From positions 1 to 36,279 of the forward strand of contig CAYINJ010000002.1 of the NCBI GenBank assembly GCA_964364745.1: 36,279 bases of DNA, written 5' to 3'. The translations under genes and the position numbers were made by a program. Shown piece by piece: positions 1,454-32,707 of this stretch. Every line of letters begins with the position of its first letter. Position 1 is the stretch's first letter. The DNA is from an uncultured Gammaproteobacteria bacterium. GTDB lineage: Bacteria > Patescibacteriota > Patescibacteriia > JACRDY01. The notes under the pieces were generated by a model, which was not told where the DNA came from, made no database searches, and worked only from the letters and a program-made list of their open reading frames with translations.

Positions 1454-3343
1454 CTATCTGTCCACCAAAACGCTACCGGGGCCGATCAGGGTTTCCAGCT
1501 CGCGGCCGACGTCGGGGTTGTCATTGACACTAAACGGGGTCTTAATCCGCTGCCATTTTCCCTGGTGCTGAATTAACAACCAGACCGGGCGCGGGCCGGG
1601 ATAGCGACCAATCACCGTCTTGATTTGTTCCGCGACCGGCGGCTCGGGTGGGGCCAAGAGCCGCAAGGTCATCAGCGGACCGGTCGGCTCGGGTGAGGCC
1701 GAGAGCCGCGCCGGCGGCGGAGTTGATGGGCTGGTGCTACTCTCGCTGCGGTGGTAGCCGTTACGCAGCCGAATCGGTCCGCGATAATTTTGCATAATGG
1801 TTTCCAACTGCTCCGTCCTAACCACTTCGCCTCGCTCGACCACGACTTTCATTTCGCCGTCTTTATCCGACAATCGCCCTTCGACCAGGACAAGAGTGTC
1901 TTCGAGCCAGCGCTCCCCCACCGACTGGACAATCGACGGGAAGAGAATTAACTCCGCCGATCCACTGCCGTCTTCGATCCGGATAAAGAGCATCGCGTCC
2001 CCTTTCCGGGTAAAAATTTTTTTCCGCGCCGTGATGACTCCCGCCACCCGCACGCCCTCATGGCCTTGCTTCAACAATTCCCCTAATTGACTGCAGCGCG
2101 CCGTGATGGCCGATAATTCTTGGGCAAATTCTTTATAGGGGTGTTCGGTGACGTACAGGCCGAGGTATTCTTTTTCCCACAATCCCCGCTCCCGCTTGGT
2201 GGCTGACGGCACTGGATCAAGTTGGAGTGTTAACGCCGGCCCAACACTGGTCGCCGAAAACAAACTGACTTGGGCGGAGTCGCTGGCGGCTTGCGCTTCT
2301 TTGGAAAACCGCAAAATCTTTTCCAGGTTATAAAGCACGGCGTTGCGCTCGATCAAGCCATCCAACGCGCCGGCCTTGGCTAAACTTTCCAGGGCTTTTT
2401 TATTCAAATCCTTGGGGCTCATCCGCAGGAGAAAGTCCTCGAAATCCCGATATGGGCCATTGGCTTTGCGGTCATGAATGACGGCTTTGGCCGCCGATTC
2501 ACCGAAATTTTTAATCGCCGACAAGCCAAACCGAATGCGGGGCTGTTTGGTCCCCAAGCTTTCGGCCACGGCGGTGAAGGTGGTGAAACTTTCGTTGATA
2601 TCCGGGGGCAGGACTTCGATGCCCATCTGTTTGCAATCATCGACTTCGATCGTCACTCGATCCAGGTCGTGTTGATCAGATGTTAGCAGTGAGGCCATAA
2701 ACTCCACCGGGTAATTGGCTTTGAAATAAGCGGTCTGATAGGCAATAATCGCGTAGCAAGCCGCGTGTGACCGGTTGAAGCCGTATTTAGCAAATGGCGG
2801 GAAGAGTTCCCAAATCTCTTTGGCCACGCGGTGATCAATGCCATTCTTGATCATCCCGCTAATTAGCTTCTCCTCTTGGGCATTAAGCAGTTCTTGGATT
2901 TTTTTGCCGATGGCTTTGCGCAAGGTGTCAGCTTCCGCCAGCGTAAACCCGGCTAAATCTTGAGCAATGCGCATCATTTGCTCTTGGTAGACGCCAATGC
3001 CATAGGTCTGCCCCAAGACCGGCTCAAGTTTGGGGTGAATATACTCAATCTTTTTTTGACCGTGTTTACGAGCGATGAAGTCCGGAATCAGTTCCATTGG
3101 CCCCGGTCGATACAGCGCGACCATGGCGATGATGTCTTCTAAGATCGAGGGTTTAAGTTGTTTCAAATACCGCTTCATGCCGGCGGACTCCAACTGAAAG
3201 ACACCGGTCGTGTCACCTCGCTGGAGGAGCTTAAAAGTCGTCAGGTCAGCCATCGGTAAAGTGTCGAGATCATACTTTTTGCCGTGGATTTTTTCGATCA
3301 CTTCAATCGTGTTTTCCAAAATCGTCAGGTTCTTCAATCCCAA
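1454..3343 (-). CDS. dnaE: DNA polymerase III alpha subunit, C-terminal fragment of an interrupted dnaE
   Basis: 629-aa ORF with DnaE motifs (TTGVFQLES, YRPGPM, FNRSHAACYA) and a C-terminal OB-like region. The listed start is a TTG inside the conserved DFLGLKNL motif. The same frame stays open upstream to about 3415 and encodes GDETIICQYSLGPIEALGLLKIDF. Confidence 0.85.
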   Translation of the reverse strand: MGLKNLTILENTIEVIEKIHGKKYDLDTLPMADLTTFKLLQRGDTTGVFQLESAGMKRYLKQLKPSILEDIIAMVALYRPGPMELIPDFIARKHGQKKIEYIHPKLEPVLGQTYGIGVYQEQMMRIAQDLAGFTLAEADTLRKAIGKKIQELLNAQEEKLISGMIKNGIDHRVAKEIWELFPPFAKYGFNRSHAACYAIIAYQTAYFKANYPVEFMASLLTSDQHDLDRVTIEVDDCKQMGIEVLPPDINESFTTFTAVAESLGTKQPRIRFGLSAIKNFGESAAKAVIHDRKANGPYRDFEDFLLRMSPKDLNKKALESLAKAGALDGLIERNAVLYNLEKILRFSKEAQAASDSAQVSLFSATSVGPALTLQLDPVPSATKRERGLWEKEYLGLYVTEHPYKEFAQELSAITARCSQLGELLKQGHEGVRVAGVITARKKIFTRKGDAMLFIRIEDGSGSAELILFPSIVQSVGERWLEDTLVLVEGRLSDKDGEMKVVVERGEVVRTEQLETIMQNYRGPIRLRNGYHRSESSTSPSTPPPARLSASPEPTGPLMTLRLLAPPEPPVAEQIKTVIGRYPGPRPVWLLIQHQGKWQRIKTPFSVNDNPDVGRELETLIGPGSVLVDR

Positions 3344-3354
3344 GAAGTCAATTT

Positions 3355-4962
3355 TTAATAGTCCCAGGGCTTCGATTGGCCCCAGGGAGTATTGGCAAAT
3401 AATTGTCTCATCACCGGAGCTGGGGTAATCAGCACGCCGCAGGCGTGCGTGGAAGTATGTCGGCAGTTATCTTCGATCCGCTTGGCGGTATCAATCAAGG
3501 TCTTGGCGTCGGCTTCAGTGTCATACATTTTTTTCAATTCCGGCTCGCGCTCGAGCGCTTCATCCAGCGACGCGAAGGTCGGAATCAGCTTGGAGATTTT
3601 GTCGCCGTAGGCGTAGGGTAAACCCAACACCCGGCCGGTATCGCGGATCGCCGCTCGGGCGGCCATCGTCCCAAAGGTAATAATCTGGGCGACGTGATCA
3701 TGACCATACTTGGCTTCGACGTAGCGAATAACTTCATCGCGCCGGGTATCAGCAAAGTCCAAATCAATATCCGGCATAGAAATCCGCTCCGGGTTGAGAA
3801 ACCGTTCAAACAGTAGTTCAAACTTGATCGGATCGACGTTGGTGATGTTGGTCAGATACGAGACGATCGATCCAGCCGCCGAACCACGCCCCGGACCGAC
3901 GACAATGCCATTATCTTTGGCCCAGTTCACAAAATCAGACACGATCAAGAAATATGACGCGTAGCCGGTCTTTTTAATCACTCCTAACTCATAAGTCAAC
4001 CGGTCGAGGACCACCTGACTGGGAGTGGCGCCATAGCGGCGAGGCAGACCTTGCTGACAGAGGTCGGCCAGATATTCATCGGCGGTCTGACTGGCTGGCA
4101 CCGCAAAAGTCGGCAGTTTAATTTCGCCGAGTTTCAATTCAAAGTTACACTGCTCGGCAATTCGGACCGTATTCGTCACCGCTGCCGGCACATCGGCGAA
4201 GTCAGCGGCCATCTGCTCCGGGCTCTTGAATGAGGCATCGATGTCGAGCAAGCACAGCCGGTTCGGGTCGCTTTTGAGCTTCTTCATCTGCAGACAAAGC
4301 AAAACGTCTTGGGCTTCGGCGTCAGCTGGCTCAATATAGTGCGTGTCAGCCGTAGCGACCAGCGCCACGTTTAATTTTTTACCCCACTCTTTGAGCGCGG
4401 CGTTAACTATGGTCTGCTCCGGCATGGTCGGGTGGTGCTGAAGCTCCAAATAAAAATTGTCCGGACCGAACACGCGCTGAAATCGCTTGATCAGTTCCTC
4501 GGTCTTGGCGGCGTCGCCGGCCAAAATCGATTGGGGAATCTCGCCTTGGACGCAAGCCGACAAGGCGATCAGGCCTTCGTGGTATTCCTCCAATAATTCC
4601 CAATCGATCCGCGGTTTGTAGTAAAAACCCTCTAAGTGCGCCCGCGAAGTTAGTTTCAGTAAATTCTGATACCCGGTGGCATTTTTGACCAACAGGACTA
4701 GGTGATAGCGGACTTCATCAATCCGCGGCCGTTTGTTCAATCGGCCGTTCGGCGCCACGTAGGCCTCCACCCCGATGATCGGTTTGATCCCGGCTTTGGT
4801 GCATTTTTGATAAAACTCAACCACCCCATACATGGCCCCGTGATCGGTCAGGGCGATGGCGGACATCCCATACTCTTTGGCCTTGGCCACTAACTGCGGC
4901 ACTTTTGACAAGCCATCGAGCAAACTGTAATGCGAGTGGGTGTGGAGATGGACAAAACTCAT
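3355..4962 (-). CDS. dnaE: DNA polymerase III alpha subunit, N-terminal fragment (PHP domain and polymerase core)
   Basis: ATG at 4962 gives MSFVHLHTHSHYSLLDG (PHP motif); the ORF-track TTG at 4980 adds only 6 aa. Further motifs: GRGSAAGS, PDIDLDF, RHTSTHACGVLI. After ...ITPAP the frame reads the non-homologous VMRQLFANTPWGQSKPWDY and stops. Confidence 0.85.
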   Translation of the reverse strand: MSFVHLHTHSHYSLLDGLSKVPQLVAKAKEYGMSAIALTDHGAMYGVVEFYQKCTKAGIKPIIGVEAYVAPNGRLNKRPRIDEVRYHLVLLVKNATGYQNLLKLTSRAHLEGFYYKPRIDWELLEEYHEGLIALSACVQGEIPQSILAGDAAKTEELIKRFQRVFGPDNFYLELQHHPTMPEQTIVNAALKEWGKKLNVALVATADTHYIEPADAEAQDVLLCLQMKKLKSDPNRLCLLDIDASFKSPEQMAADFADVPAAVTNTVRIAEQCNFELKLGEIKLPTFAVPASQTADEYLADLCQQGLPRRYGATPSQVVLDRLTYELGVIKKTGYASYFLIVSDFVNWAKDNGIVVGPGRGSAAGSIVSYLTNITNVDPIKFELLFERFLNPERISMPDIDLDFADTRRDEVIRYVEAKYGHDHVAQIITFGTMAARAAIRDTGRVLGLPYAYGDKISKLIPTFASLDEALEREPELKKMYDTEADAKTLIDTAKRIEDNCRHTSTHACGVLITPAPVMRQLFANTPWGQSKPWDY

Positions 4963-4988
4963 AGGGGGAGAAAACGACAAAGGGAAAA

Positions 4989-10780: not shown

Positions 10781-10809
10781 ATGATCGGTAGTATAGCAGG
10801 GATTATCAC

Positions 10810-10930
10810 GTCATTGCGAGGGCCGTTGCGGCCCGCGGCAATCCCAGCGCATATCCCACTAACCGGTTGATGCGCTCAACCTGGGATTGCCGCCCTTCGC
10901 TCCGCTCAGGGTAAACTTCCTCGCAATGAC
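10810..10930. repeat. Palindromic GC-rich repeat element (about 120-bp imperfect hairpin)
   Basis: gtcattgcgagg (10810-10821) is the exact reverse complement of cctcgcaatgac (10919-10930). ggcaatcccag (10837-10847) is the reverse complement of ctgggattgcc (10881-10891). Right-arm segments 10881-10899 and 10903-10924 recur at 11892-11910 and 11915-11936. Confidence 0.7.
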
Positions 10931-10944
10931 AGACATAAAACGGC

Positions 10945-10970
10945 AAAAGGAGCTCTTGCGAGCTCCTTTT
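10945..10970 (-). terminator. Intrinsic terminator downstream of the 10992-11495 ORF
   Basis: Perfect 11-bp stem, aaaaggagctc / gagctcctttt, with a 4-nt loop. It has flanking A/T runs and lies 21 nt after the ORF stop. Confidence 0.65.
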
Positions 10971-10991
10971 GGTGTATGTGACTGGGGGGGG

Positions 10992-11495
10992 TTACGAACC
11001 GGTGGCTGCACCGGCTGCGTCTTCGTCGTCTTCGTCGTCCTCGTCGTCGGTCGCGGCGTCTTCGTCGTCGACAGCGCCATCGTCGGCGGCCGCCTGGCTC
11101 TTCTCCCACTGCTCACCGATCAGGCGGAGGACCGTCAAGGCCAGAATCTGATAGACCCGACCGGCGCGCAAACGCTTGGTCAGATGTTCGAACGTTCCGA
11201 GGGCGGCCTCGAAGATGTCCTCGAGGCGGAACGGGCTCCCCTCAACGATCATCCGCAGCTCGATCGAGGTCAGCGTACCGCGCTGCCAGCGGCCGCGCCC
11301 GTCGAAATACCCGACGTTCTTGGCGACAACGTGTTGCAGCCAATCGTCTTCGTCTTTTTCCAAGGCCTTGATATACCCGGCCTTGATTTCCTGGAATCTC
11401 GCGCGCGCTTGGTCCTGATACGACGGCTTTCCGTCGTGTTGCTTCGGACGGCTGGGGGGGCCGCCTTTTCCGTCTCCCCGCTGGCGCTGCGTCAT
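10992..11495 (-). CDS. Hypothetical protein with basic disordered N-terminus and poly-acidic C-terminal tail
   Basis: 167-aa ORF with AGGAGG 5 nt upstream of the ATG (taggaggtttcaATG), its own promoter and its own terminator. The C-terminus is DDGAVDDEDAATDDEDDEDDEDAAG. GC-rich relative to its neighbours. No family recognised. Confidence 0.7.
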   Translation of the reverse strand: MTQRQRGDGKGGPPSRPKQHDGKPSYQDQARARFQEIKAGYIKALEKDEDDWLQHVVAKNVGYFDGRGRWQRGTLTSIELRMIVEGSPFRLEDIFEAALGTFEHLTKRLRAGRVYQILALTVLRLIGEQWEKSQAAADDGAVDDEDAATDDEDDEDDEDAAGAATGS

Positions 11496-11614
11496 TGAAA
11501 CCTCCTAAAGGTCGACGCTAGATCAACGAACAACTTTGCCGTGCAACCCGCAACCACCCCTGATGGAGTGTCGCCGCTTTCGAGTTTATCCCGAGCGGTG
11601 CAGCAAATTAGTTT

Positions 11615-11643
11615 ATAATAGCATAGATAAAAGTTTTTGTCAA
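11615..11643 (-). promoter_or_regulatory. Sigma70-type promoter for the 10992-11495 cassette
   Basis: The minus strand reads TTGACA, a 17-nt spacer (aaaacttttatctatgc) and TATTAT. This leaves a leader of about 110 nt before the ATG at 11495. Confidence 0.6.
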
Positions 11644-11651
11644 TAATAACC

Positions 11652-11674
11652 AAAACCCAATAAAATTGGGTTTT
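11652..11674. terminator. Bidirectional terminator-like hairpin
   Basis: Perfect 10-bp stem, aaaacccaat / attgggtttt, with a 3-nt loop. It lies just upstream (minus-strand sense) of the promoter above and downstream of the mutase gene. Confidence 0.55.
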
Positions 11675-11694
11675 ACGGGACAAACATTCTCTCA

Positions 11695-11841
11695 TGTCTG
11701 TCATCCCGAGCGAACCCCGAGCGAAGCGCGGGGGTAGTCGAGGGATCTAGACGGATATCCACGGCAGGTCTGTCTCTTCTCTTGCAAACTAACTTCACGT
11801 AGATCCCTCGTCCCACAAAGCTGGACTCGGGACGACAGACA
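11695..11841. repeat. Palindromic GC-rich repeat element (nested inverted repeats)
   Basis: tgtctgtcatcccgag (11695-11710) pairs with ctcgggacgacagaca (11826-11841), with 1 mismatch. cgagggatcta (11739-11749) pairs exactly with tagatccctcg (11800-11810). Contains the gagcgaagcg motif also present at about 27688-27697. Confidence 0.65.
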
Positions 11842-11888
11842 AGAGAGGAAGGCAACCACACATATATAGTTGGCAGGGGGGGGCCATT

Positions 11889-11970
11889 ACCCTGGGATTG
11901 CCGCCCTTCGACTACGCTCAGGGTAAACTTCCTCGCCCCGCCTTCGGCGGGACTCCGCTCGGGATGACAC
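11889..11970. repeat. Second copy of the ctgggattgccgcccttcg...cgctcagggtaaacttcctcgc repeat, plus an inverted copy of the gtcatcccgagcg motif
   Basis: 11892-11910 and 11915-11936 are identical to 10881-10899 and 10903-10924. cgctcgggatgaca (11956-11969) is the exact reverse complement of 11699-11712. Confidence 0.65.
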
Positions 11971-11996: not shown

Positions 11997-13391
11997 CTAC
12001 TCCCCGACCACCAGCTTCATCACCTCGGCTTTTTTCTCCGCCACGATCACCGCGCTCGTTCCCTCGACATTGCAACGCACCAGCGGCTCGGTGTTGGACG
12101 TGCGGACATTCACTCGCCAGTCGGGATATTCAATTGTCACACCATCAAGTTCGTTGATCTGGGCATCGGCGTATTTGACTTTGAGGCGGCCAAACACGGC
12201 CGGGGTATCAGCCACGGTAACGTTCTGCTCGCCAGAGACGAAGAAACGACCGGTGTATGGCGCCAAAATTTCCGATAAACTCTGGGCGGTCTCCGACAGC
12301 GCTTCCCACATCAGGAGGAATGGAATCATACCATTGTCGGCGTACCAGTTATCGGCAAAATAATAATGCCCGCTGGACTCACCGCAAAACAGCGCGCGCT
12401 GCCGACGCATTTGATCTTTGATGTAAGAGTGCCCCACCCGACCCATCATGGCCGTGCCACCATGTTCAGTGACCGCCGCAGTAATAGCGCGAGCATACCG
12501 CACGTCATAGATAATGGTTGCTCCTGGATGAGTGGCTAATAGCCGCTCGGCAAATAACGCCGTCGGATAACACGGTTCATAAAACACCCCTTGATTATCA
12601 CAAAAGAAACAGCGGTCGCCATCGCCATCCCAGGCCACGCCGAAATCGGCCTGCTCGGACTTGGTTAAGGTCACCAACTCCTGCCGATTAGCAATGATCA
12701 TCGGGTCGGGGCGACCTTTCGGGAAAGTACCGTCCGGATCGTAGTTTAGAGGCACAATAGTCAATAGGCCTCCTAGTTTTTCGTTTAATTTACTTAACAG
12801 CCCGCCGTTAGCGCCAAAATTGGCATTGGCAACGATCTTGGTCGGCTTTAACTTAGCAACATCGACAAAGGATAAAATAAAATCCAGATAGTCGGCCGTA
12901 ACATCTTGGACGGTAATACTGCCCTGTTGGCCCGGTGAGGCCAGCGGTCCGGCCGCAATGGTATCGCGGATATCGAGCAGTCCATTGTCGGCAAACAGCG
13001 GCTCGGCGTTGGCCAAAGTTAATTTAATCCCGGCATAACCGGGTGGATTGTGCGACGCTGACGCGATCATGCCCCCATCAAACCCGTAGTGGCCGACGGT
13101 AAAATAGAGCACGTCCGTCGGCGTGGTGCCGATATCGGTCACGGCGACACCGGACTCGGTCAAACCGCGAATAATGGCCGCTTTGACCTCGGCACTGGCT
13201 GGACGGACGTCTTGGGCGACGGCGACTTTTTGGGGCTGAAACTTAGCGGCGTAAGCCAAGGCCACTTGATAAGCCGTTGCGGCATCAAATTGCTCCGGGT
13301 AACGGCCGCGCACATCGTAGCCACGGAAAATAGCGGGATCAAACATACGTTGACGAAACGGCTTATTTTTCTTATAATCTAGATACTTCAT
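11997..13391 (-). CDS. Phosphomannomutase/phosphoglucomutase (alpha-D-phosphohexomutase family)
   Basis: ASASHNPPGYAGIK phosphoserine loop, AWDGDGDRCFF metal site and GESSGHYYF loop. Start set at ATG 13391 (MKYLDYKK...). ATG 13415 is an alternative, and the ORF-track TTG at 13439 would overlap the divergent lemA start. Confidence 0.88.
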   Translation of the reverse strand: MKYLDYKKNKPFRQRMFDPAIFRGYDVRGRYPEQFDAATAYQVALAYAAKFQPQKVAVAQDVRPASAEVKAAIIRGLTESGVAVTDIGTTPTDVLYFTVGHYGFDGGMIASASHNPPGYAGIKLTLANAEPLFADNGLLDIRDTIAAGPLASPGQQGSITVQDVTADYLDFILSFVDVAKLKPTKIVANANFGANGGLLSKLNEKLGGLLTIVPLNYDPDGTFPKGRPDPMIIANRQELVTLTKSEQADFGVAWDGDGDRCFFCDNQGVFYEPCYPTALFAERLLATHPGATIIYDVRYARAITAAVTEHGGTAMMGRVGHSYIKDQMRRQRALFCGESSGHYYFADNWYADNGMIPFLLMWEALSETAQSLSEILAPYTGRFFVSGEQNVTVADTPAVFGRLKVKYADAQINELDGVTIEYPDWRVNVRTSNTEPLVRCNVEGTSAVIVAEKKAEVMKLVVGE

Positions 13392-13429
13392 TATAGCACG
13401 GCGGATATTATTCATAAAACTTGCGACGT

Positions 13430-13999
13430 ATGGATTCAAGTACTCTGCTTTGGATAATTCTCGGGCTAGCGGTGATTATCGGTTTGTGGCTAATCGGGGT
13501 GTTTAATGGCCTGATTCGGCTGAAAAACCGCACCGATGAGGCCTGGGCCGATATTGACGTCCAGCTCAAACGCCGTCATGACTTGATTCCGAATCTGGTC
13601 GAAACGGTCAAGGGCTACGCCACTCATGAACAGGCCACGTTTGAAAAGGTCATTCAAGCGCGCAACATGGCCATGCAAGCCCAAGGCCAGGGCGCAGCCG
13701 CCGCGGCCGGAGCCGAAAACATGCTGACCGACACGCTGAAAAGCATTTTCGCGCTATCCGAAAGCTACCCCGACCTGAAGGCCAATCAAAACTTCCTGAA
13801 ACTGCAAGACGAATTGTCGGACACCGAAAATAAGGTTCAGGCATCGAGACGCTTCTACAACGGCAATGTGCGGGACTTTAACATCAAGTTCGAAACCTTC
13901 CCGGCGAACATGTTCGTCAAGTCACTCGGCTTTGCCAAGAAAGAATTCTTCGAGATTACCGAGACGGTCGAGCGGCAAAACGTCGCCGTGAAGTTCTAG
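13430..13999 (+). CDS. lemA: LemA family membrane protein
   Basis: ATG at 13430 (MDSSTLLWIILGLAVIIG, a TM helix), followed by the LemA-type sequence NGLIRLKNRTDEAWADIDVQLKRRHDLIPNLV...SRRFYNGNVRDFN. Confidence 0.9.
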   Translation: MDSSTLLWIILGLAVIIGLWLIGVFNGLIRLKNRTDEAWADIDVQLKRRHDLIPNLVETVKGYATHEQATFEKVIQARNMAMQAQGQGAAAAAGAENMLTDTLKSIFALSESYPDLKANQNFLKLQDELSDTENKVQASRRFYNGNVRDFNIKFETFPANMFVKSLGFAKKEFFEITETVERQNVAVKF

Positions 14000-20370: not shown

Positions 20371-20376
20371 TTGCCT

Positions 20377-21495
20377 ATGCGGAGGGTATTATTAGTGACA
20401 ATTCTCGCCCTCTTGAGTTGGCAGTTTTTGCTGTTAGCGCCGGTCGCTTTAGCGGAAGCCCCCCAATCACTGCTTTTTGAAAAACCCACCCTCCAGGTTC
20501 AGTTTCCTTCCCTCCAATTTACTGATTCTGAAAACATCATTGCTAAGGGCCAAGGCAAGATTAAGTATTTTGCGATCCCCTGGATTGCCGAGTATATCAC
20601 CGCCGCTTACCGCTTTGGCGTGGCCATCGCCGGGGTGTTGGCCGTGATTATGATTATCGCTGGCGGATTTGTCTGGATGACCGCCGGCGGCAATTCTAGC
20701 CAAGTCGACACGGCCAAAACCTACATCATTGGCGCCCTGGCTGGTTTAGTGTTGGCGCTGGGCAGCTATACCCTCTTGTGGCTGATTAATCCCAACCTCA
20801 CGCAACTGCCTTTCCTGCGGGTGCCGGTAATTCAGCGGGTTGGTTTGGGGGACTTTTGTCCGCTAGTGGTGTCAAGTCAACAAAAAATATTTACTCTTAA
20901 AGAAGATGGTACGGCCGACAAAGAGGTTCCGATCGGCACAACTATACCATGTGGAAAGCGGCTATTTTTGTCCGACGGAGCTGACAACCAATGTATGGGG
21001 TTAGGAGATTGCTCGGGCAGTCAATTGTGCTTGCCAGACTTCAGTAAGGATATTGTGGCGACCGGTCAAGGTAGTCTAAAATTCGAATTTGATTGTTTCT
21101 CTTCTGCTCAAGACCAGTGTAAAAAGTTAAATGACAATCAGGCCGATAAGGTAGGTTTACCGCACCAGCAATCAACCTGTAACCTAATCAACAGCACGCT
21201 CGCCTATCAATCACCGAACACTGAAAATCAAGGTCGGTGCGTGTGGGTGGATAAGAGTATCATTACAGAAATTATTACTGGCGGCTGGTCTGACGACGGC
21301 TGTTACTGGTGTCCGGATGATCGTTACCAAGATATGCTAACAACATTTAAAGAATACAAAATCAACCCGATTGATGATTGTGCCAACGGACTGGGTAAAA
21401 TTTACGGCCAACTTACGGGGATTGAGGCGCTCGGAGAGCTGTTAAGCAGCGAAGATAAAGAGGCCTGCCTAGCACGGTGGTGCGGTGGCCAGTAA
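20377..21495 (+). CDS. Secreted pilin-module protein 1: signal peptide + VirB2/TrbC-like two-helix module + C-terminal 14-Cys domain
   Basis: ATG at 20377 (MRRVLLVTILALL...ALAEA signal). Conserved block IPWIAEYITAAYRFGVAIAGVLAVIMIIAGGFVWMTAGGNSSQVDTAKTYIIGALAGLVLALGSYTLLWLINP. The C-terminal domain of about 210 aa has 14 Cys and no recognised family. Confidence 0.8.
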   Translation: MRRVLLVTILALLSWQFLLLAPVALAEAPQSLLFEKPTLQVQFPSLQFTDSENIIAKGQGKIKYFAIPWIAEYITAAYRFGVAIAGVLAVIMIIAGGFVWMTAGGNSSQVDTAKTYIIGALAGLVLALGSYTLLWLINPNLTQLPFLRVPVIQRVGLGDFCPLVVSSQQKIFTLKEDGTADKEVPIGTTIPCGKRLFLSDGADNQCMGLGDCSGSQLCLPDFSKDIVATGQGSLKFEFDCFSSAQDQCKKLNDNQADKVGLPHQQSTCNLINSTLAYQSPNTENQGRCVWVDKSIITEIITGGWSDDGCYWCPDDRYQDMLTTFKEYKINPIDDCANGLGKIYGQLTGIEALGELLSSEDKEACLARWCGGQ

Positions 21496-21499
21496 TTAT

Positions 21500-22651
21500 A
21501 TGACCCGTTCTTTCTTTTTTGCTTTAATCGCTAGCGCCATTATCTTAATCCCCCAGGTCAGCTTGGCCCTCCTGACTGGCCCTTCGGTTGGTTCGACCTG
21601 CTGTATCTGTGTGAAAGATGGCGTATATGTGGCGGAAGGGGCGGCGTTTCAGTCCCCCGATGGCTTTGGAGCCAAGTGTGCTTCAGAAAGTTGTCAGGTT
21701 GAATATTCGGCTTGTACCGATCAGGCCGTAAAAGACAAGATTAATGGATTGAACACCACGGTCAACTCGGTTACGCCCCTGGTCACGCCCACCACCCAAG
21801 TCGTCATTCCCGGACTGACCTTCACCAAAACACTTGACCTCAAAGACGGGGCCAATGGCTTGAGGTTTTATGAAATACCGTGGATTGCTGAATATATCAG
21901 CGCCGTCTATCGCTGGGGTGTCGGTATCGCCGGCGTGTTGGCGGTGGTGATGATTATCATCGGTGGCTTCACTTGGCTGACCGCCGGGGGTAACTCGAGC
22001 CAAGTTGAAACGGGCAAGAAATATATCATCGGCGCCTTGGCTGGTTTGGTCTTTGTCATGAGTAGTTATACTATTTTGTGGTTGATTAACCCCGAGTTGG
22101 TCAAACTGAAGTCGATTGCTATTCCGTATGTTGAACGATTATCACTGGAGATTCCCGAGTCAGAGCCCGAAAACATTGCCGCCGAAAAAACTGGTAATTT
22201 GACTGCCGTGGGCGAGCGGAAAACAACCGAATTCATCGTCATTCATACTGCCGCTGGACTGCAGAGTCGCAACGAAGTCGACGCTTTCCATCGTACTAAG
22301 GGTTGGGCTGGTATTGGCTATAATTTCTACATTGAACGCAACGGCCAGTGGGTTGAAGGCCGAGGTGAAAGCAAAGTTGGCGCTCACGCGGTGGGCTACA
22401 ATGCTAAAAGCATTGGCATTTCTTATGCCGGCTGCGTTAATTTTCAAGTCGCCAATCAACCTTTGGCGACCGCTCTAGCCAAAGAAACTATCACTCAAAC
22501 CCAACTCGATACTTTAATCGAACACATTAAACAACTACAGCAAAAATATAATATCCCGCGCAATAAAGTACTGGACCACCGTGAAACTGGTGCGCCTAAG
22601 GCCTGCTCTTGCCTGAATATGGACGAGATTAGAGCCAAAATTAATCCGTGA
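21500..22651 (+). CDS. Secreted pilin-module protein 2: signal peptide + 6-Cys module + two-helix pilin-like module + N-acetylmuramoyl-L-alanine amidase (Amidase_2/PGRP type)
   Basis: ATG at 21500. Conserved block IPWIAEYISAVYRWGVGIAGVLAVVMIIIGGFTWLTAGGNSSQVETGKKYIIGALAGLV...SYTILWLINP. C-terminal amidase motifs: EFIVIHTAAG, GWAGIGYNFYIERNG, GAHAVGYNAKSIGISYAG, LDHRE. Confidence 0.85.
   Translation: MTRSFFFALIASAIILIPQVSLALLTGPSVGSTCCICVKDGVYVAEGAAFQSPDGFGAKCASESCQVEYSACTDQAVKDKINGLNTTVNSVTPLVTPTTQVVIPGLTFTKTLDLKDGANGLRFYEIPWIAEYISAVYRWGVGIAGVLAVVMIIIGGFTWLTAGGNSSQVETGKKYIIGALAGLVFVMSSYTILWLINPELVKLKSIAIPYVERLSLEIPESEPENIAAEKTGNLTAVGERKTTEFIVIHTAAGLQSRNEVDAFHRTKGWAGIGYNFYIERNGQWVEGRGESKVGAHAVGYNAKSIGISYAGCVNFQVANQPLATALAKETITQTQLDTLIEHIKQLQQKYNIPRNKVLDHRETGAPKACSCLNMDEIRAKINP
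21573..21753 (+). repeat. 181-bp direct repeat, copy 1 (encodes the 6-Cys N-terminal module of paralog 2)
   Basis: Identical to 22742-22922 except for one base (gtaaaagacaag versus gtaaaggacaag). The protein segment LTGPSVGSTCCICVKDGVYVAEGAAFQSPDGFGAKCASESCQVEYSACTDQAVKDKINGLN is identical in both. Confidence 0.9.
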
Positions 22652-22653
22652 TT

Positions 22654-23931
22654 ATGCGACTCTTTTATTTTCTTCTCCGATTAACTGTCAGCGTTGCCAT
22701 GGTGGTTTTGGTTTTGCTTCCACAAGCTGGGGTAGCCTTATTGACTGGCCCTTCGGTTGGTTCGACCTGCTGTATCTGTGTGAAAGATGGCGTATATGTG
22801 GCGGAAGGGGCGGCGTTTCAGTCCCCCGATGGCTTTGGAGCCAAGTGTGCTTCAGAAAGTTGTCAGGTTGAATATTCGGCTTGTACCGATCAGGCCGTAA
22901 AGGACAAGATTAATGGATTGAATACTAAGATTGAACTTCTCCCCCTGACCCCGCCCGATCTCCAAGTCGACATCCCTGGTTTTCCTAAATTCAGTACCGA
23001 GCTGGAGTTAGACGAGCAAAAGACCTTTTACAATATTCCTTGGATCGCCGAGTATATCAACGCCGTCTACCGTTGGGGGGTGAGCATTGCCGCTGTTTTG
23101 GCGGTGATCATGATTATCGCCGGCGGCCTGACCTGGCTGACGGCCGGCGGCAACAGCAAACAGGTGGAGACCGCCAAGACCTACATCATCGGCGCTTTGA
23201 CCGGTCTGGTGTTGGCCTTGGGCAGCTACACTATTTTGTGGCTGATCAATCCGCAACTAACACTCCTCAAGCCGTTGCGGATTCCCTACGTGCAAAATGT
23301 GGCGCTTGAAGTCGGGCCGCGTATTTCTTCATACTTGATTGCTAATCCCGGCCAAGAAGGCAAAAAAGAACAGTTTAACAACGCTGCTTGTCCAACCAAA
23401 GAAGAGGCCCAGGCCGGTTTTGATGGGTTTATTACTTCTTACTACGCGCCAGCTTATGGTGAAAAAGGCAACTACAGTAGTTTTGAGTGCAACGTAGCGA
23501 TGCAGTGTTCTTGTCCTGGTCCGGGTGGCAATAAATATCATAAAGACGAGTCAAAAACCTGTCGCTTCCCGGCTAAAGTCCTCGGTAAGGGTTTCAGTGA
23601 TAACCCCTGCATGCCCATTCCGGCCGGCAGTATTCCTGGCCAGAGTTATTGTAATAAAAGTGCTTCGGGCACCGCACCAGTTGCTTTCAAAACCGCGGCC
23701 GCTGATATTGCGGGAGACAAGATCGGGGTCAATTGCTGGAGCGTTGGTGACCAGTTTACGATTGAAGGCATTGGTGGCCAAGCGGCTGGTCCCTGGACGG
23801 TCCAAGATAGCGGGTCGGATATTAAGAGTCGCCATTTCGATCTCTTTGTCGGTACTAATTTCCAAGCCACAAAATCAATGGGTGGCGTCTACAAGATTAA
23901 GTTCACCAAGTGTCAAAAATGTGGCTTCTAA
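22654..23931 (+). CDS. Secreted pilin-module protein 3: signal peptide + 6-Cys module + two-helix pilin-like module + C-terminal 3D (MltA-like) domain
   Basis: ATG at 22654. Conserved block IPWIAEYINAVYRWGVSIAAVLAVIMIIAGGLTWLTAGGNSKQVETAKTYIIGALTGLV...SYTILWLINP. C-terminal GFITSYYAP...AADIAGDKIGV...WTVQDSGSDIKSRHFDLFVG matches the 3D-domain pattern DtGgaIkg.riDlf. Confidence 0.85.
   Translation: MRLFYFLLRLTVSVAMVVLVLLPQAGVALLTGPSVGSTCCICVKDGVYVAEGAAFQSPDGFGAKCASESCQVEYSACTDQAVKDKINGLNTKIELLPLTPPDLQVDIPGFPKFSTELELDEQKTFYNIPWIAEYINAVYRWGVSIAAVLAVIMIIAGGLTWLTAGGNSKQVETAKTYIIGALTGLVLALGSYTILWLINPQLTLLKPLRIPYVQNVALEVGPRISSYLIANPGQEGKKEQFNNAACPTKEEAQAGFDGFITSYYAPAYGEKGNYSSFECNVAMQCSCPGPGGNKYHKDESKTCRFPAKVLGKGFSDNPCMPIPAGSIPGQSYCNKSASGTAPVAFKTAAADIAGDKIGVNCWSVGDQFTIEGIGGQAAGPWTVQDSGSDIKSRHFDLFVGTNFQATKSMGGVYKIKFTKCQKCGF
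22742..22922 (+). repeat. 181-bp direct repeat, copy 2 (encodes the 6-Cys N-terminal module of paralog 3)
   Basis: See copy 1. The offset between copies is 1169 bp. Confidence 0.9.
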
Positions 23932-27488: not shown

Positions 27489-27509
27489 AATCTCTCTGGG
27501 AAAATTTAG

Positions 27510-27600
27510 GGAAAGGTGGCCGAGTGGCTGAAGGCGGCGGTTTGCTAAACCGCTATAGGGTGTTAAAGCCCTATCGAGGGTTCGAATCCCTCCCTTTCCG
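27510..27600 (+). tRNA. tRNA-Ser (anticodon GCT)
   Basis: Class II tRNA. Acceptor stem GGAAAGG/CCTTTCC, anticodon loop TTGCTAA, long variable arm, and T-arm GAGGG TTCGAAT CCCTC. Confidence 0.93.
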
Positions 27601-27608
27601 ATGAAAGA

Positions 27609-27635
27609 CGCTTCTCAAGATTGAGGGGCGTTTTT
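27609..27635 (+). terminator. Intrinsic terminator after tRNA-Ser(GCU)
   Basis: cgcttctcaa (27609-27618) pairs with ttgaggggcg (27621-27630), including two G-U pairs. It is followed by ttttt (27631-27635). Confidence 0.6.
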
Positions 27636-27758
27636 CATTATTACTCCCATTTAAAGGTGCCGGGATTCGAAAGGCAGAAGCGAACAACGAGCGAAGCGAG
27701 GCAGTGAGCGATCGGCCTGAAGCGAGCAGGCGCGAGCTTCAGGCCGCTGCCCCGGACC

Positions 27759-27780
27759 CGAATCCCTCCCTTTCCGATGA
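27759..27780 (+). repeat. 22-bp exact duplicate of the 3' end of tRNA-Ser(GCU) plus 4 flanking nt
   Basis: cgaatccctccctttccgatga at 27759-27780 is identical to 27583-27604. Confidence 0.85.
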
Positions 27781-27783
27781 TAG

Positions 27784-27810
27784 GAGCTCCTCCTGGCGAG
27801 GAGCTTTTAT
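27784..27810 (+). terminator. Plus-strand terminator-like hairpin directly after the duplicated tRNA 3' end
   Basis: agctcctc / gaggagct stem with loop ctggc, followed by tttt. The T-run is on the plus strand even though the adjacent gene (sodA) is on the minus strand. Confidence 0.5.
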
Positions 27811-29712: not shown

Positions 29713-31575
29713 TTAAATGGCGGCGTCCGGAATCGCTCCCGGCGCGGCCGGCTGTCCTTGCTCGGCGGCAAATTGTTCTTTGGCCGCTTGGATTTCCAAT
29801 AATTGTTGGGGGTTGGTAGTGATCAGTTGATCTTCGTTCGGTGAAGCCACCACTTCGATGGCCGCGTGTTTATTGCCAGCGAAGAAAATCCCCTGCCCGA
29901 CGGCCGACTCCAGCAATAGATACTTTTCCCCTTCGGTTAACAAAAATGTTTTTTGGACTCGATCAATCGACGCCGGTGACTGCTTCATCAACAGCTGTAG
30001 CGCCGAGTTGTTGACGATCGCTTGGCCGTAGGGCGAAAGTAAAAAGTCATTGACATCTTGGGTGATAGTGGTGACGCCGAGATAGTACTTGCGGCAGCGT
30101 TTGACCAAGGCATAGATAAACTTGGCCGAGTCCTCTTGTTGCATCAACCACCAGGCCTCATCGATGATCAACAGTCGCTTTTTGCTCTGGGACCGAACGA
30201 CGTTCCAAATGTAGTTGACGAGGTTATAGATCGCCAGCGGCCGGAGCTCGTCTTCGAGATCGCGGACCGAAAAACAAACCAACTGGTTGTCCATGTCAAC
30301 GTTAGTCGGCCGATTCAGCAGCCCGGCAAAGGTGCCTTCGGTATGCTTTTTCAGTCGCAGCGCGACGTTGGCGCCGCCCTCCATCCCCTCCAAAATATCA
30401 ACTAAATCCTGCATAATTGGCGGCTCGACCGTCGCCAAATCCGACTCGGGAGTGATATCTTTTTTGGCGTAGGTCTCCAGCAGCGCCCGGTCCACGATCG
30501 AGTCCTCTTCGGCCGTCAGCGAACCGACCATCAGTCGCACCAACCCCTTGACGGTGATGACGGCGCTGCGAATAATATCTTCGACCGTGAAATCCTTGTC
30601 CACCGGCCGCGGCAGGTCAAAGGGGTTGACTTTACTGTCGGAGGCCAGCGAAATGTTGATGTAAGTACCACCGACGGCCTCACACAGCCGCTGGTATTCT
30701 TTTTCCGGATCAATCACGATAATGTCAGTCCCCAGCATCAAGCTGCGCAAGATCTCCAGTTTAACCGTGTAGCTCTTGCCGGCGCCGGCCGTGGCAAAGA
30801 CCACCATGTTGGCGTTTTGGAGTGAGAAGCGGTCGAACAGAATTAAGCTGTTATTGTGGCGGTTGATGCCGTATAAAATACCGTTATTTGATGACAATTC
30901 AAAGGAGATAAAGGGAAATGACGAGGCAGCCGGTGATGTATTCATGTTGAAAACGACAGTGAGTTCATCTCGGCCGAGCGGCAAAGTGGAAGTAAACCCT
31001 TGTTCGGCCTGATAGAGCACATTGCGCGAGTAGACCAGCTTCGAGCCAAAAATGTCTTCAAGGTTGCGGGTGCGATCTTCAAGTTGTTCGAGGGTGTCGG
31101 CGTACAGCGTGACGTACAAAGCATACTGAAAGAAGTGCTCGATACCTTGGGTCAAGTCATCGCGCAGTTTTTCGATGTCTTGTAGCGCCGTTTCCCGCAA
31201 GGGATCGCGCGGCGCGCCTTTTTCCCGGTCGGCACTCAATTCGGCTTCTAAATTCCCGGCTCGTTTCTTGAGATCTTTTAAGATCGCGCCGGCCTTGACC
31301 GGATAGAAATGCATGGCAATATCAATCGGCGTCGGGAAGTTGATGATCGGCACGAACCAACCGACGGCAATATAGCGCGGATAGGTAATGACAAACGCCG
31401 TCCGGACATATTTGTTGCCCAGCCGGACATAAGTCGACTGAATATCCATCGCCGATGGCGCGATCAGGTCAATGATCGAGATCGTGCCGGCGCGATAGCG
31501 CTGCTCTTCGATCAGCGCTTCTTTACCGATCGCGACCGTGGCGTCGACAGCGGGTTTTTTAGTAAATAAGGCCAT
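29713..31575 (-). CDS. virB4: VirB4-family type IV secretion ATPase (Gram-positive/TrsE-like type)
   Basis: 620 aa. Walker A VVFATAGAGKSYTV, Walker B RLLIIDEAWW, and the N-terminal VirB4 domain pattern (YVRTAFVITYPRYIAVGWFVPII). Confidence 0.9.
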   Translation of the reverse strand: MALFTKKPAVDATVAIGKEALIEEQRYRAGTISIIDLIAPSAMDIQSTYVRLGNKYVRTAFVITYPRYIAVGWFVPIINFPTPIDIAMHFYPVKAGAILKDLKKRAGNLEAELSADREKGAPRDPLRETALQDIEKLRDDLTQGIEHFFQYALYVTLYADTLEQLEDRTRNLEDIFGSKLVYSRNVLYQAEQGFTSTLPLGRDELTVVFNMNTSPAASSFPFISFELSSNNGILYGINRHNNSLILFDRFSLQNANMVVFATAGAGKSYTVKLEILRSLMLGTDIIVIDPEKEYQRLCEAVGGTYINISLASDSKVNPFDLPRPVDKDFTVEDIIRSAVITVKGLVRLMVGSLTAEEDSIVDRALLETYAKKDITPESDLATVEPPIMQDLVDILEGMEGGANVALRLKKHTEGTFAGLLNRPTNVDMDNQLVCFSVRDLEDELRPLAIYNLVNYIWNVVRSQSKKRLLIIDEAWWLMQQEDSAKFIYALVKRCRKYYLGVTTITQDVNDFLLSPYGQAIVNNSALQLLMKQSPASIDRVQKTFLLTEGEKYLLLESAVGQGIFFAGNKHAAIEVVASPNEDQLITTNPQQLLEIQAAKEQFAAEQGQPAAPGAIPDAAI

Positions 31576-31578
31576 AGA

Positions 31579-32277
31579 TTAACCACTAAGCTGAATCTTG
31601 CCCACGGCCGCTAACGGTTCTTGTTCGGAAGTGTCGGGGTTGTATGAGTTGTAGTACAGCTCAATCAGCCCTTGGGTGTCGAGTCGGGTGGCCGATAACC
31701 CCACTGATCCCAGCCCATTAGCTGTCTGCCCCACTCGCTGTTCTAGTTCTTTCATCCGTTGCTCAAACTTTTTGGCACTTAATTTTACCAGCGACGCCGG
31801 CGTAAATAACTCTTGGAGTCGGGACCAAAAACTCCGCTGTTTATCGGAGAGCGGATCGTACGGCACGACAACATAGAACCGCTTGGTCATGATGTCGCCT
31901 AAGCTGATCAGCTCACCGACGTACTGGCGGTAGTCGCTGATTTGATTGCGCAACAATTCATTGCTTTGTTCCTTTTCTATTTTTTCCAAATTTTGCAAAT
32001 AGGGAGTGATGTCGGTTTTCCGTGACTGGACGACAATTTGCAGCGGGTAATTCAAGGAGTTCAAAAACCCCATGTAAGCGCTAATGATCGCCTCTTGTTC
32101 ACCGGTCGACTTCAGCGCGAAGTTGATACTAGACACCATCAGTACGCCCCGCAGAGTGCCGTCGCGCATGACGACCGTACTGTTGCGAATTTCCGCGATC
32201 GGCAAGCTGCGTTGGGTCGCGGGGTATTTACTTTTTGGTTTTGACGCCATAATTGTTTGATTGGTCGTCGAGCTCAT
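31579..32277 (-). CDS. Hypothetical soluble protein resembling a stand-alone VirB4 N-terminal domain (no ATPase motifs)
   Basis: 232 aa. IAEIRNSTVVMRDGTLRGVLMVSSINFALKSTGEQEAIISAYMGFLNSLNYPLQIVVQSRK follows the N-domain pattern of VirB4/TrbE proteins, with no Walker A. The stop is 3 nt before the virB4 start. An alternative ATG lies at 32250. Confidence 0.7.
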   Translation of the reverse strand: MSSTTNQTIMASKPKSKYPATQRSLPIAEIRNSTVVMRDGTLRGVLMVSSINFALKSTGEQEAIISAYMGFLNSLNYPLQIVVQSRKTDITPYLQNLEKIEKEQSNELLRNQISDYRQYVGELISLGDIMTKRFYVVVPYDPLSDKQRSFWSRLQELFTPASLVKLSAKKFEQRMKELEQRVGQTANGLGSVGLSATRLDTQGLIELYYNSYNPDTSEQEPLAAVGKIQLSG

Positions 32278-32707
32278 GCGACGAGTAGGCCCCGCCAGTG
32301 TTGACTACCAGCGCCAGCTCGTCTAGCCGAGAGCGGGCGGCAAAATGTTTGACCGGGACCACCAGTTCTTTCGTTTCCTCAATCGCCGGGGCCAGCAATT
32401 CTTTAACTTCCACTGCCGTCAGTTGTTTATTCCACAGCCGGCGGCGGGAGCGCTTCAGGGTCTCCATGACATTGAGGAAAAAATAATGGAACGGGCGGCC
32501 GTTGACCTTGAGAAACGCCACGATGCCAAAAATACCAAAGGTCAGTACGCCGAAGATCACGAAGGCCCAAAAATCAAACAGCTTATACTCGGCGGCGATT
32601 AAGAGCATGCCGACTAACATAATAATAAACTGCCGGACCGTGATCGGCCCGATGATTTTCGGTTCGACATCAATGAATTGCGGGACTAGAAAATGATCAA
32701 GGGCCAT
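32228..32707 (-). CDS. PrgI-family (VirB3-like) small membrane protein
   Basis: FLVPQFIDVEPKIIGPITVRQFIIMLVGMLLIAAEY followed by a second TM helix FVIFGVLTFGIFGIVAFL. Typical PrgI architecture and typical position upstream of virB4. Confidence 0.75.
   Translation of the reverse strand: MALDHFLVPQFIDVEPKIIGPITVRQFIIMLVGMLLIAAEYKLFDFWAFVIFGVLTFGIFGIVAFLKVNGRPFHYFFLNVMETLKRSRRRLWNKQLTAVEVKELLAPAIEETKELVVPVKHFAARSRLDELALVVNTGGAYSSHELDDQSNNYGVKTKK

Follow-up and report, generated by a model that had tools for sequence, protein, structure and literature searches.

Patescibacteria have tiny genomes in which a large share of the genes has no assigned function, and the lineage-restricted genes of this group, the Candidate Phyla Radiation, form a large class. 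The gene described here belongs to that class. It encodes a protein of 167 residues, the product of an open reading frame (ORF) that we call ORF167 and that NCBI labels 'hypothetical protein AAB817_00710', on the minus strand of contig CAYINJ010000002.1, a 36,279-bp contig of a Patescibacteria metagenome-assembled genome that was analyzed whole and is called the window here. Like other Patescibacteria orphans, ORF167 is small, has no database family, is found in a narrow lineage and evolves fast, being 27-33% identical to its homologues where the neighboring MurI keeps ~56%. Its gene differs from such orphans in that its expression signals are unusually complete and conserved, its codon bias is maintained and its untranslated regions (UTRs) are more conserved than the coding sequence, features that, as read from the DNA, point to an important and abundant product rather than a marginal ORF.

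Several better-described systems share part of this make-up. In the delta subunit (RpoE) of the RNA polymerase of Firmicutes, the N-terminal domain is folded and the C-terminal tail is polyanionic, competing with nucleic acids on RNA polymerase; ORF167 resembles it in length, in the order of a folded part and a disordered acidic C-terminal tail, and in its monocistronic gene. Bacterial SSB, T7 gp2.5 and HMGB1 combine, as ORF167 does, a basic region with an acidic C-terminal tail, and they are the basis of the mode of action proposed below, but neither an OB fold nor an HMG box was predicted or detected in ORF167 and the comparison is one of analogy only. The T7 protein Ocr and ArdA share with ORF167 a locally dense run of Asp and Glu. 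Their charge, however, lies on a folded surface that imitates the DNA backbone, whereas that of ORF167 forms a low-complexity tail on a mildly basic core; ORF167 also shows no sequence or fold similarity to them, has no mobile-element context and appears to be inherited vertically. From an integron gene cassette the gene differs in carrying its own promoter and two terminators and in having single housekeeping genes as neighbors; no integrase domain was found among the window ORFs scanned.

We consider it reasonably probable that the ORF167 gene is a vertically inherited gene, taxonomically restricted to a narrow group of Patescibacteria, which entered its present site as an old insertion and has been kept there as an insulated and probably strongly expressed unit. 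The evidence comes chiefly from related loci, which were fetched using the neighboring MurI as the query. One of them, L014, is a 98-kb JGI contig whose MurI is 56% identical to that of the window, and it encodes, directly upstream of murI, an unannotated protein of 191 residues (P0123). This protein begins MTQTRGSNNKGG...GGKPSYFDEAKA, as ORF167 begins MTQRQRGDGKGG...DGKPSYQDQARA, and the two align over 147 residues at 27% identity (BLASTP E = 7e-11). A third member, the 205-residue P0124 of locus L018, matches the ORF167+P0123 profile with E = 1.6e-62 and shares 67-74% identity with P0123. The members are all chromosomal and lie between PMM (or an M20 peptidase gene) and murI, and all three genes adjoin murI on its upstream side within a backbone, htpX-lemA-PMM...murI-rseP-pheS-pheT, that the window, L014 and L018 share. 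ORF167, P0123 and P0124 each display an N-terminal arm of the form MTQ-x5/6-KGG-x8/9-GKPSY, a helical core with a D-x-RG hairpin and an ALTV helix, the murI-adjacent site and expression signals of their own. We refer to the related loci that carry the gene (L014, L015, L018 and L019) as clade A, to which a truncated contig, L020, also belongs, and to a related clade without it as clade B. Between the clade-A orthologues dN/dS is 0.23, a sign of purifying selection on the reading frame, and the protein is therefore real.

Database searches with the protein alone gave no hint of this family. A word-indexed search of 5.8e9 proteins returned ORF167 itself only, and phmmer against 1.84e9 representatives returned ORF167 together with a spurious match to P0002, a repetitive translation of 2,435 residues whose score came from six repeated stretches and which we set aside as an artefact. 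Profile-guided scans of metagenome and viral contigs yielded only another copy of the L014 contig, and no relative turned up in IMG/VR. The missing distant relatives are weak negative evidence, because the single-sequence scan missed even P0123. It was synteny that assigned this protein to a family, after a single-sequence search of 1.8 billion proteins had missed its relatives.

The site itself is informative about origin. PMM directly abuts murI in seven related loci (L003, L005, L006, L008, L016, L025 and L026), which agrees with the description of the gene as wedged between housekeeping genes, and the junction holds other inserts elsewhere: HicAB in L017, a NUDIX hydrolase with unknown genes in L001, a HAD hydrolase with a creatininase in L022, and an M20 peptidase together with the family gene in L014. 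By this comparison of gene orders, the otherwise conserved PMM-murI junction is a hot spot for inserted genes in this bacterial order, and, set against the ancestral arrangement, the cassette is one of those inserts. The L001 insert comprises, besides the NUDIX hydrolase, unknown proteins of 211 and 89 residues.

The original prediction had taken the gene for a horizontal acquisition, and one version of that account, a recent gain whose acidic tail acts as an Ocr/ArdA-like DNA mimic or anti-restriction device, draws some support from the flanking repeat elements and from the fact that clade B and more distant relatives lack the gene at the junction. The same absence, in clade B and the outgroups, fits an old gain as well. 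Against a recent one stand the homologues at the same locus in L014, L015, L019 and L018, whose promoter and 3'UTR are homologous as well; MurI in that clade is only ~56% identical, and the clade is ~42% diverged from the window lineage in MurI+RseP. Nor does the gene diverge out of step with its neighbors: between L014 and L018, dS is 0.85 for the family gene, 0.80 for murI and 0.84 for rseP, although the protein itself changes faster (dN/dS 0.23 vs 0.09-0.10 for murI and rseP). Checking the murI junction for the gene gave a divided answer, presence in these clade-A loci and absence from clade B and beyond, and a recent acquisition is not supported.

All features listed in the original prediction are present, and the gene is confirmed to lie on the minus strand. 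From the upstream to the downstream side, the unit consists of the following.

11651..11675, minus strand: hairpin with an 11-bp stem, flanked by A/T runs, upstream of the promoter; L014 and L018 likewise have an A-run/hairpin/T-run terminator ahead of theirs.
11615..11643, minus strand: promoter TTGACA-17-(TG)c-TATTAT, homologous to the clade-A promoter, with TATTGACAAA...TATGCTA in common.
11496..11608, minus strand: 5' leader of ~112 nt, with a predicted hairpin that partly pairs the Shine-Dalgarno sequence and the AUG; it has no Rfam family and is not matched by a model of the clade-A leader.
11501..11506, minus strand: Shine-Dalgarno sequence AGGAGG, 5 nt 5' of the ATG, read directly from the sequence.
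10992..11495, minus strand: coding sequence of ORF167 (167 residues, 18.6 kDa, pI 4.7), with homologues P0123 and P0124.
11421..11495, minus strand: segment encoding the N-terminal head MTQ..KGG..GKPSY, in which MTQ, KGG and GKPSY are invariant in the family alignment; residues 1-11 have a predicted local distance difference test score (pLDDT) below 50.
10995..11090, minus strand: segment encoding the poly-Asp/Glu/Ala tail, residues 136-167, with 16 Asp+Glu and no Lys or Arg, built of imperfect 9-nt GAC/GAA repeats at spacings of 9, 9, 12 and 18.
10977..10984, minus strand: CAGTCACA motif of the 3'UTR, immediately before the terminator, kept in three of three family members in the alignment.
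10944..10971, minus strand: intrinsic terminator with a 12-bp stem and a 4-nt loop (-20 kcal/mol, z = -7.3); L014 and L018 have a terminator at the equivalent position.

The unit is supported as self-contained and monocistronic, with its own promoter and a terminator on either side, much as had been proposed, and the hairpin at 11651..11675, predicted earlier at 11652-11674, probably ends PMM transcription and thereby insulates the ORF167 gene. The promoter has a perfect -35 element and an extended -10 (TG before TATTAT), with 11 of 12 consensus positions matched. Promoter, AGGAGG sequence and a leader first estimated at ~110 nt were read correctly, the terminator stem measures 12 bp where 11 had been given, and the 167-residue product has exactly the N and C termini quoted. 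The additional claim that these signals are stronger than those of the neighboring genes stands only in part: every signal is there, but a promoter in front of lemA (13350-13378, plus strand) matches the consensus equally well, at 11 of 12 positions, and the ORF167 promoter is not unique locally in its strength. The order terminator-promoter-leader-ORF-terminator is common to the window and the clade-A genes, and the promoter cores align as TATTGACAAA...TATGCTA..AT. A second GC-rich, self-contained unit was noticed before murI in L001 (5590-5990, plus strand), with TTGACA-17-TATTGT, an GGAGGGAG Shine-Dalgarno-like sequence, an 85-codon ORF or structured RNA, and a terminator; its sequence is unrelated to ORF167 and it has no Rfam match.

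Base composition was part of the original case for foreign DNA. The hand counts of G+C were exact (44/60 and 40/60 in the cassette, 35/60 in murI), and the cassette is indeed GC-rich: the ORF167 gene has a GC content of 0.635 and a third-position GC content (GC3) of 0.774, compared with 0.541 +/- 0.028 and 0.625 +/- 0.046 for the other 28 window ORFs, which places it ~3 SD above them in both. A difference of this size would favor a recent gain. The composition is not diagnostic of recent transfer, however, because homologues in another clade show the same excess: GC3 is 0.774, 0.755 and 0.782 in the three family members and 0.47-0.69 in neighboring genes. Since GC3 has stayed high in every member despite near-saturated synonymous sites, the bias is a maintained property. 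Among two-fold pyrimidine-ending codons, the fraction ending in C (NNC/NNY) is 0.81 in ORF167 vs 0.48 in the other window genes (Fisher 2e-5), none of which exceeds 0.63, and 0.80 vs 0.41 in L014 (6e-8). Bias toward C-ending codons usually marks translational selection in bacterial genes that are highly expressed. The high GC3 thus appears to stem from a maintained preference for codons ending in C or G, which fits high expression and not a foreign origin, and from the conserved near-consensus promoter together with this codon bias we infer, with moderate confidence, that the gene is strongly expressed; the earlier assertion of high expression is to that extent plausible. In this gene, atypical GC3 and flanking repeats mimicked horizontal transfer, and the comparison shows a maintained trait that is probably linked to expression.

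The untranslated parts of the transcript are under constraint in clade A. Between L014 and L018 only 5 of 145 nt differ from the -35 hexamer to the ATG, where the overall rate of murI predicts 25 differences (P = 2e-7) and the synonymous rate 71; the 49-nt 3'UTR plus terminator contains one difference, and immediately upstream of the promoter conservation is much lower. These counts are a clear sign of constraint on the noncoding parts of the clade-A transcript; for the leader in the window lineage, constraint is conjectured. The clade-A promoter and leader (L014 3944-4087 and L018 109-251, both plus strand) are ~97% identical, compared with 82-83% nucleotide identity and dS of ~0.8 in the flanking housekeeping genes, and all four changes within the transcribed leader lie in predicted loops or linkers or turn G-U into A-U. 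On these grounds the clade-A leader is a candidate new cis-regulatory RNA. At the gathering score, Rfam 15 recognized only tRNAs in the window, and permissive scans of the window and L014 cassettes gave sub-threshold, terminator-driven matches. The minimum-free-energy folds of the two leaders look alike, with a UUUGCU/GGCAA closing stem around three hairpins followed by a Shine-Dalgarno/AUG hairpin. We do not claim a structure common to both lineages, given folding z scores of -0.9 to -1.2, a poor MAFFT/RNAalifold consensus and the negative bit scores that a covariance model built from the clade-A leader gives on the window leader. A conserved upstream ORF in the leader was likewise rejected: the stop codon of the 10-codon candidate in L014 is lost in L018, and the window has nothing equivalent.

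With UTRs more conserved in clade A than the coding sequence, and with a long ORF of 203 residues on the opposite strand (10887-11498, plus strand), one might suppose that ORF167 is incidental and that the real product is an RNA, from the leader or 3'UTR, or the antisense protein. We give this supposition minimal probability. The sense frame has a dN/dS of 0.23, the protein is homologous across lineages, the Shine-Dalgarno sequence and ATG are conserved, positional GC shows the periodicity of a coding frame (GC1 0.70, GC2 0.43, GC3 0.77) and the AlphaFold2 (AF2) core is confident, whereas the antisense ORF begins inside a repeat element and lacks start signals.

The protein has three parts. 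Head residues 1-25 are disordered, basic (pI 11) and rich in Gly, Pro and Lys; the core (residues 26-~140) has a pI of 8.2; and the tail is the poly-acidic tract listed above. AF2 with the three-sequence alignment modeled the core confidently, at pLDDT 77-90 over residues ~21-130, with both ends disordered; the model as a whole has a pLDDT of 71.7 and a predicted TM score of 0.58. In this model helices 26-46 and 50-60, a beta-hairpin at 62-72, and helices 77-86, 91-107 and 111-144 make up a core of ~110 residues with five helices and one beta-hairpin. The single-sequence model was poor (pLDDT 56), and its Foldseek matches are meaningless. With the three-sequence model, Foldseek found nothing similar in the PDB (best E = 1.7) or BFVD (best E = 0.19), all at TM scores below 0.35. 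Pfam, NCBIfam, PHROGs, PADLOC and PDB sequences gave nothing significant, whether the query was ORF167 by itself, the three members together or their profile; matches to Sigma70_ner (E = 0.027), SepL/TyeA (E = 0.08) and methionine aminopeptidase (E = 0.08) were dismissed as composition or chance. The sequence searches and structure prediction that the original prediction had called for thus produced a confident core and no known family or fold, and the product is a small cytoplasmic protein whose core has no detectable relative.

The acidic tail is not shared by the family. The tails of P0123 and P0124 are rich in Ala, Val and Pro, nearly balanced in charge and devoid of a poly-acidic tract. 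The family is defined by a conserved N-terminal arm and a helical core followed by a fast-evolving C-terminal tail, and the poly-acidic tract is, judged from these three sequences, a lineage-specific low-complexity expansion and not a defining trait; in the window lineage the tail would have expanded probably through slippage of the 9-nt GAC/GAA repeats. The suggestion of a DNA-mimic, anti-restriction or chromatin-type protein had rested on this tail, in which 16 of 32 residues are Asp or Glu, and the comparison does not support it. The tail has no counterpart in the homologues, the core has a pI of 8.2, neither PADLOC, PHROGs, Pfam, BFVD nor the PDB offered a match, viral contigs contained no relative, no integrase, transposase or restriction gene occurs among the Pfam-annotated window genes, and the mobile carriage of anti-defense genes is not seen in the family. 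Together with co-divergence of the gene with its neighbors and retention of its compositional bias in all members, these results leave the recently transferred DNA mimic largely refuted, and we assign it very little probability.

Size, a folded domain with an acidic disordered tail, a monocistronic and probably abundant product, and the weak, composition-driven Sigma70_ner matches would also suit an accessory factor of the transcription machinery analogous to the RpoE delta subunit. We regard this as quite improbable. No HARE-HTH domain (PF05066) was detected by hmmscan at E <= 1 for ORF167 or E <= 5 for all three members, nor any other Pfam match at E <= 5; Foldseek returned no delta-subunit structure; the basic N-terminal arm of ORF167 is not found in delta; and the homologues lack the polyanionic tail, which is not a family trait.

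For the vertically inherited, family-restricted protein that we favor, a mode of action can be sketched by analogy with SSB, gp2.5, HMGB1 and the RNA polymerase delta subunit. The basic arm and core of an abundant protein would bind a polyanion such as RNA, DNA or a ribonucleoprotein, in the window lineage the acidic tail might serve as an intramolecular competitor or modulator, and the long leader, able to pair the Shine-Dalgarno sequence and the AUG, could tune synthesis post-transcriptionally. As a joint mechanism these steps are proposed with low confidence. Equally speculative is the broader possibility of an abundant, Patescibacteria-specific protein of new fold, associated with the nucleoid, the ribosome or RNA and governed by a new structured leader that is autoregulatory or senses a ligand or temperature. 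If true, a new leader RNA would account for the ~97-98% identity of the clade-A leader and 3'UTR despite near-saturated synonymous sites. Complete signals, selected codon usage and conserved UTRs make it a good candidate gene for an abundant component, structural or regulatory, that is specific to these organisms.

Several observations weigh against this account or parts of it. In the MurI+RseP(+PheS) tree the grouping of the window with clade A has a bootstrap of 13-21%, and a single gain, a gain followed by loss in clade B, or an old lateral transfer into the same site may each have occurred, the tree making no distinction between them. The window contains no ribosomal-protein genes by which codon preference could be calibrated. 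The core is mildly basic at most, and the tie between the protein and nucleic acids consists of charge and disorder. The leader of the window folds with z = -0.9 and is not recognized by the clade-A covariance model, which makes leader control in this lineage a conjecture.

As originally described, palindromic repeats flank the cassette on both sides.

11699..11969, no strand assigned: upstream composite palindromic element with GTCATCCCGAGCG termini, an inverted repeat by alignment, which carries the second 45-nt repeat copy.
11891-11936: second copy of the 45-nt direct repeat, in the upstream element.
10880..10924, plus strand: first copy of the 45-nt direct repeat, in the downstream element.
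10810..10930, no strand assigned: downstream palindromic element resembling miniature inverted-repeat transposable elements (MITEs) or repetitive extragenic palindromic (REP) sequences, with GTCATTGCGAGG termini and an inner inverted repeat GCGGCAATCCCAG/CTGGGATTGCCGC (-68.8 kcal/mol, z = -5.4).

Like REP and MITE repeats, the flanking elements are imperfect palindromes of 120-270 nt with conserved GTCATTGCGAGG or GTCATCCYGAGCG termini that adjoin terminators in intergenic DNA; terminal inverted repeats and a stable fold were confirmed for them, on a count of two copies within the 36-kb contig. They differ from such repeats in that, across two diverged lineages, each of the two subtypes keeps to its own side of the gene (again with two copies in the contig): GTCATCCYGAGCG-type termini lie upstream and GTCATTGCGAGG termini downstream in both the window and L014. 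Related copies are present in L014, L018 and L020, the last of which, truncated, ends in such elements directly before murI. A literature search with the repeat terminus found unrelated primer sequences only.

This arrangement raises the question of whether the cassette is the passenger of a mobilizable composite element, bounded by the two palindromes, that entered the PMM-murI junction possibly more than once. The two elements are the only palindromic elements of their type in the contig, they bracket the cassette, and the 45-nt repeat occurs there only, in two copies, one per element, against a chance expectation of 0; the L014 homologue is bracketed alike, with the same subtype on each side, at a junction that is an insertion hot spot. 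We nevertheless consider such a composite unlikely. There is no transposase or integrase nearby, no copy of the cassette is known at another genomic site, and each element forms a full palindrome bounded by two termini of its own, like ordinary MITE/REP insertions in free intergenic DNA. L018, moreover, has no downstream palindromic element, so that the elements come and go independently of the gene. An old insertion, inherited vertically, remains our preferred explanation for the ORF167 gene itself.

Further observations concern the neighboring genes. In the window (10781-10800, minus strand), L014 (4985-5000) and L018 (1020-1040), a TATACT -10 box lies 6-13 nt before the ATG of murI with no Shine-Dalgarno sequence between, and from this spacing the murI mRNA seems leaderless or to have a very short leader. 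The PMM ORF as listed (11997-13439, minus strand), which opens with TTG at 13439, shares 19 nt with the beginning of the divergent lemA ORF (13421-13999, plus strand). When it is aligned with relatives by tblastn, the matches start at about residue 24-37, and the true PMM start is therefore probably further downstream; if so, the 11/12 promoter at 13350-13378 sits in a divergent intergenic region and probably serves lemA.

Elsewhere in the window, the DNA polymerase III alpha subunit (DnaE) is split (1454-4980, minus strand) between an ORF at 3355-4980 with PHP and NTPase regions and one at 1454-3343 with finger, HHH and OB regions, 11 nt apart, which could be a frameshift, an assembly error or a genuine split. 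At 27509-27800 (plus strand), a segment covering the tRNA-Ser(GCT) 3' end and the first part of its terminator (27583-27616) recurs 176 nt further downstream (27759-27792) at 88% identity, and this second copy is followed by a terminator hairpin of its own; the duplication looks like an attachment (att)-type relic of integration, or a tRNA fragment. Finally, three tandem paralogues at 20371-23931 (plus strand), with repeated segments of 190-230 nt at 73-97% identity, encode products with T4SS_pilin plus Amidase_2 or 3D domains, and VirB4/TraG-like and PrgI genes lie at 29713-32707. These genes fit a type-IV-secretion or competence-like surface apparatus typical of Patescibacteria.

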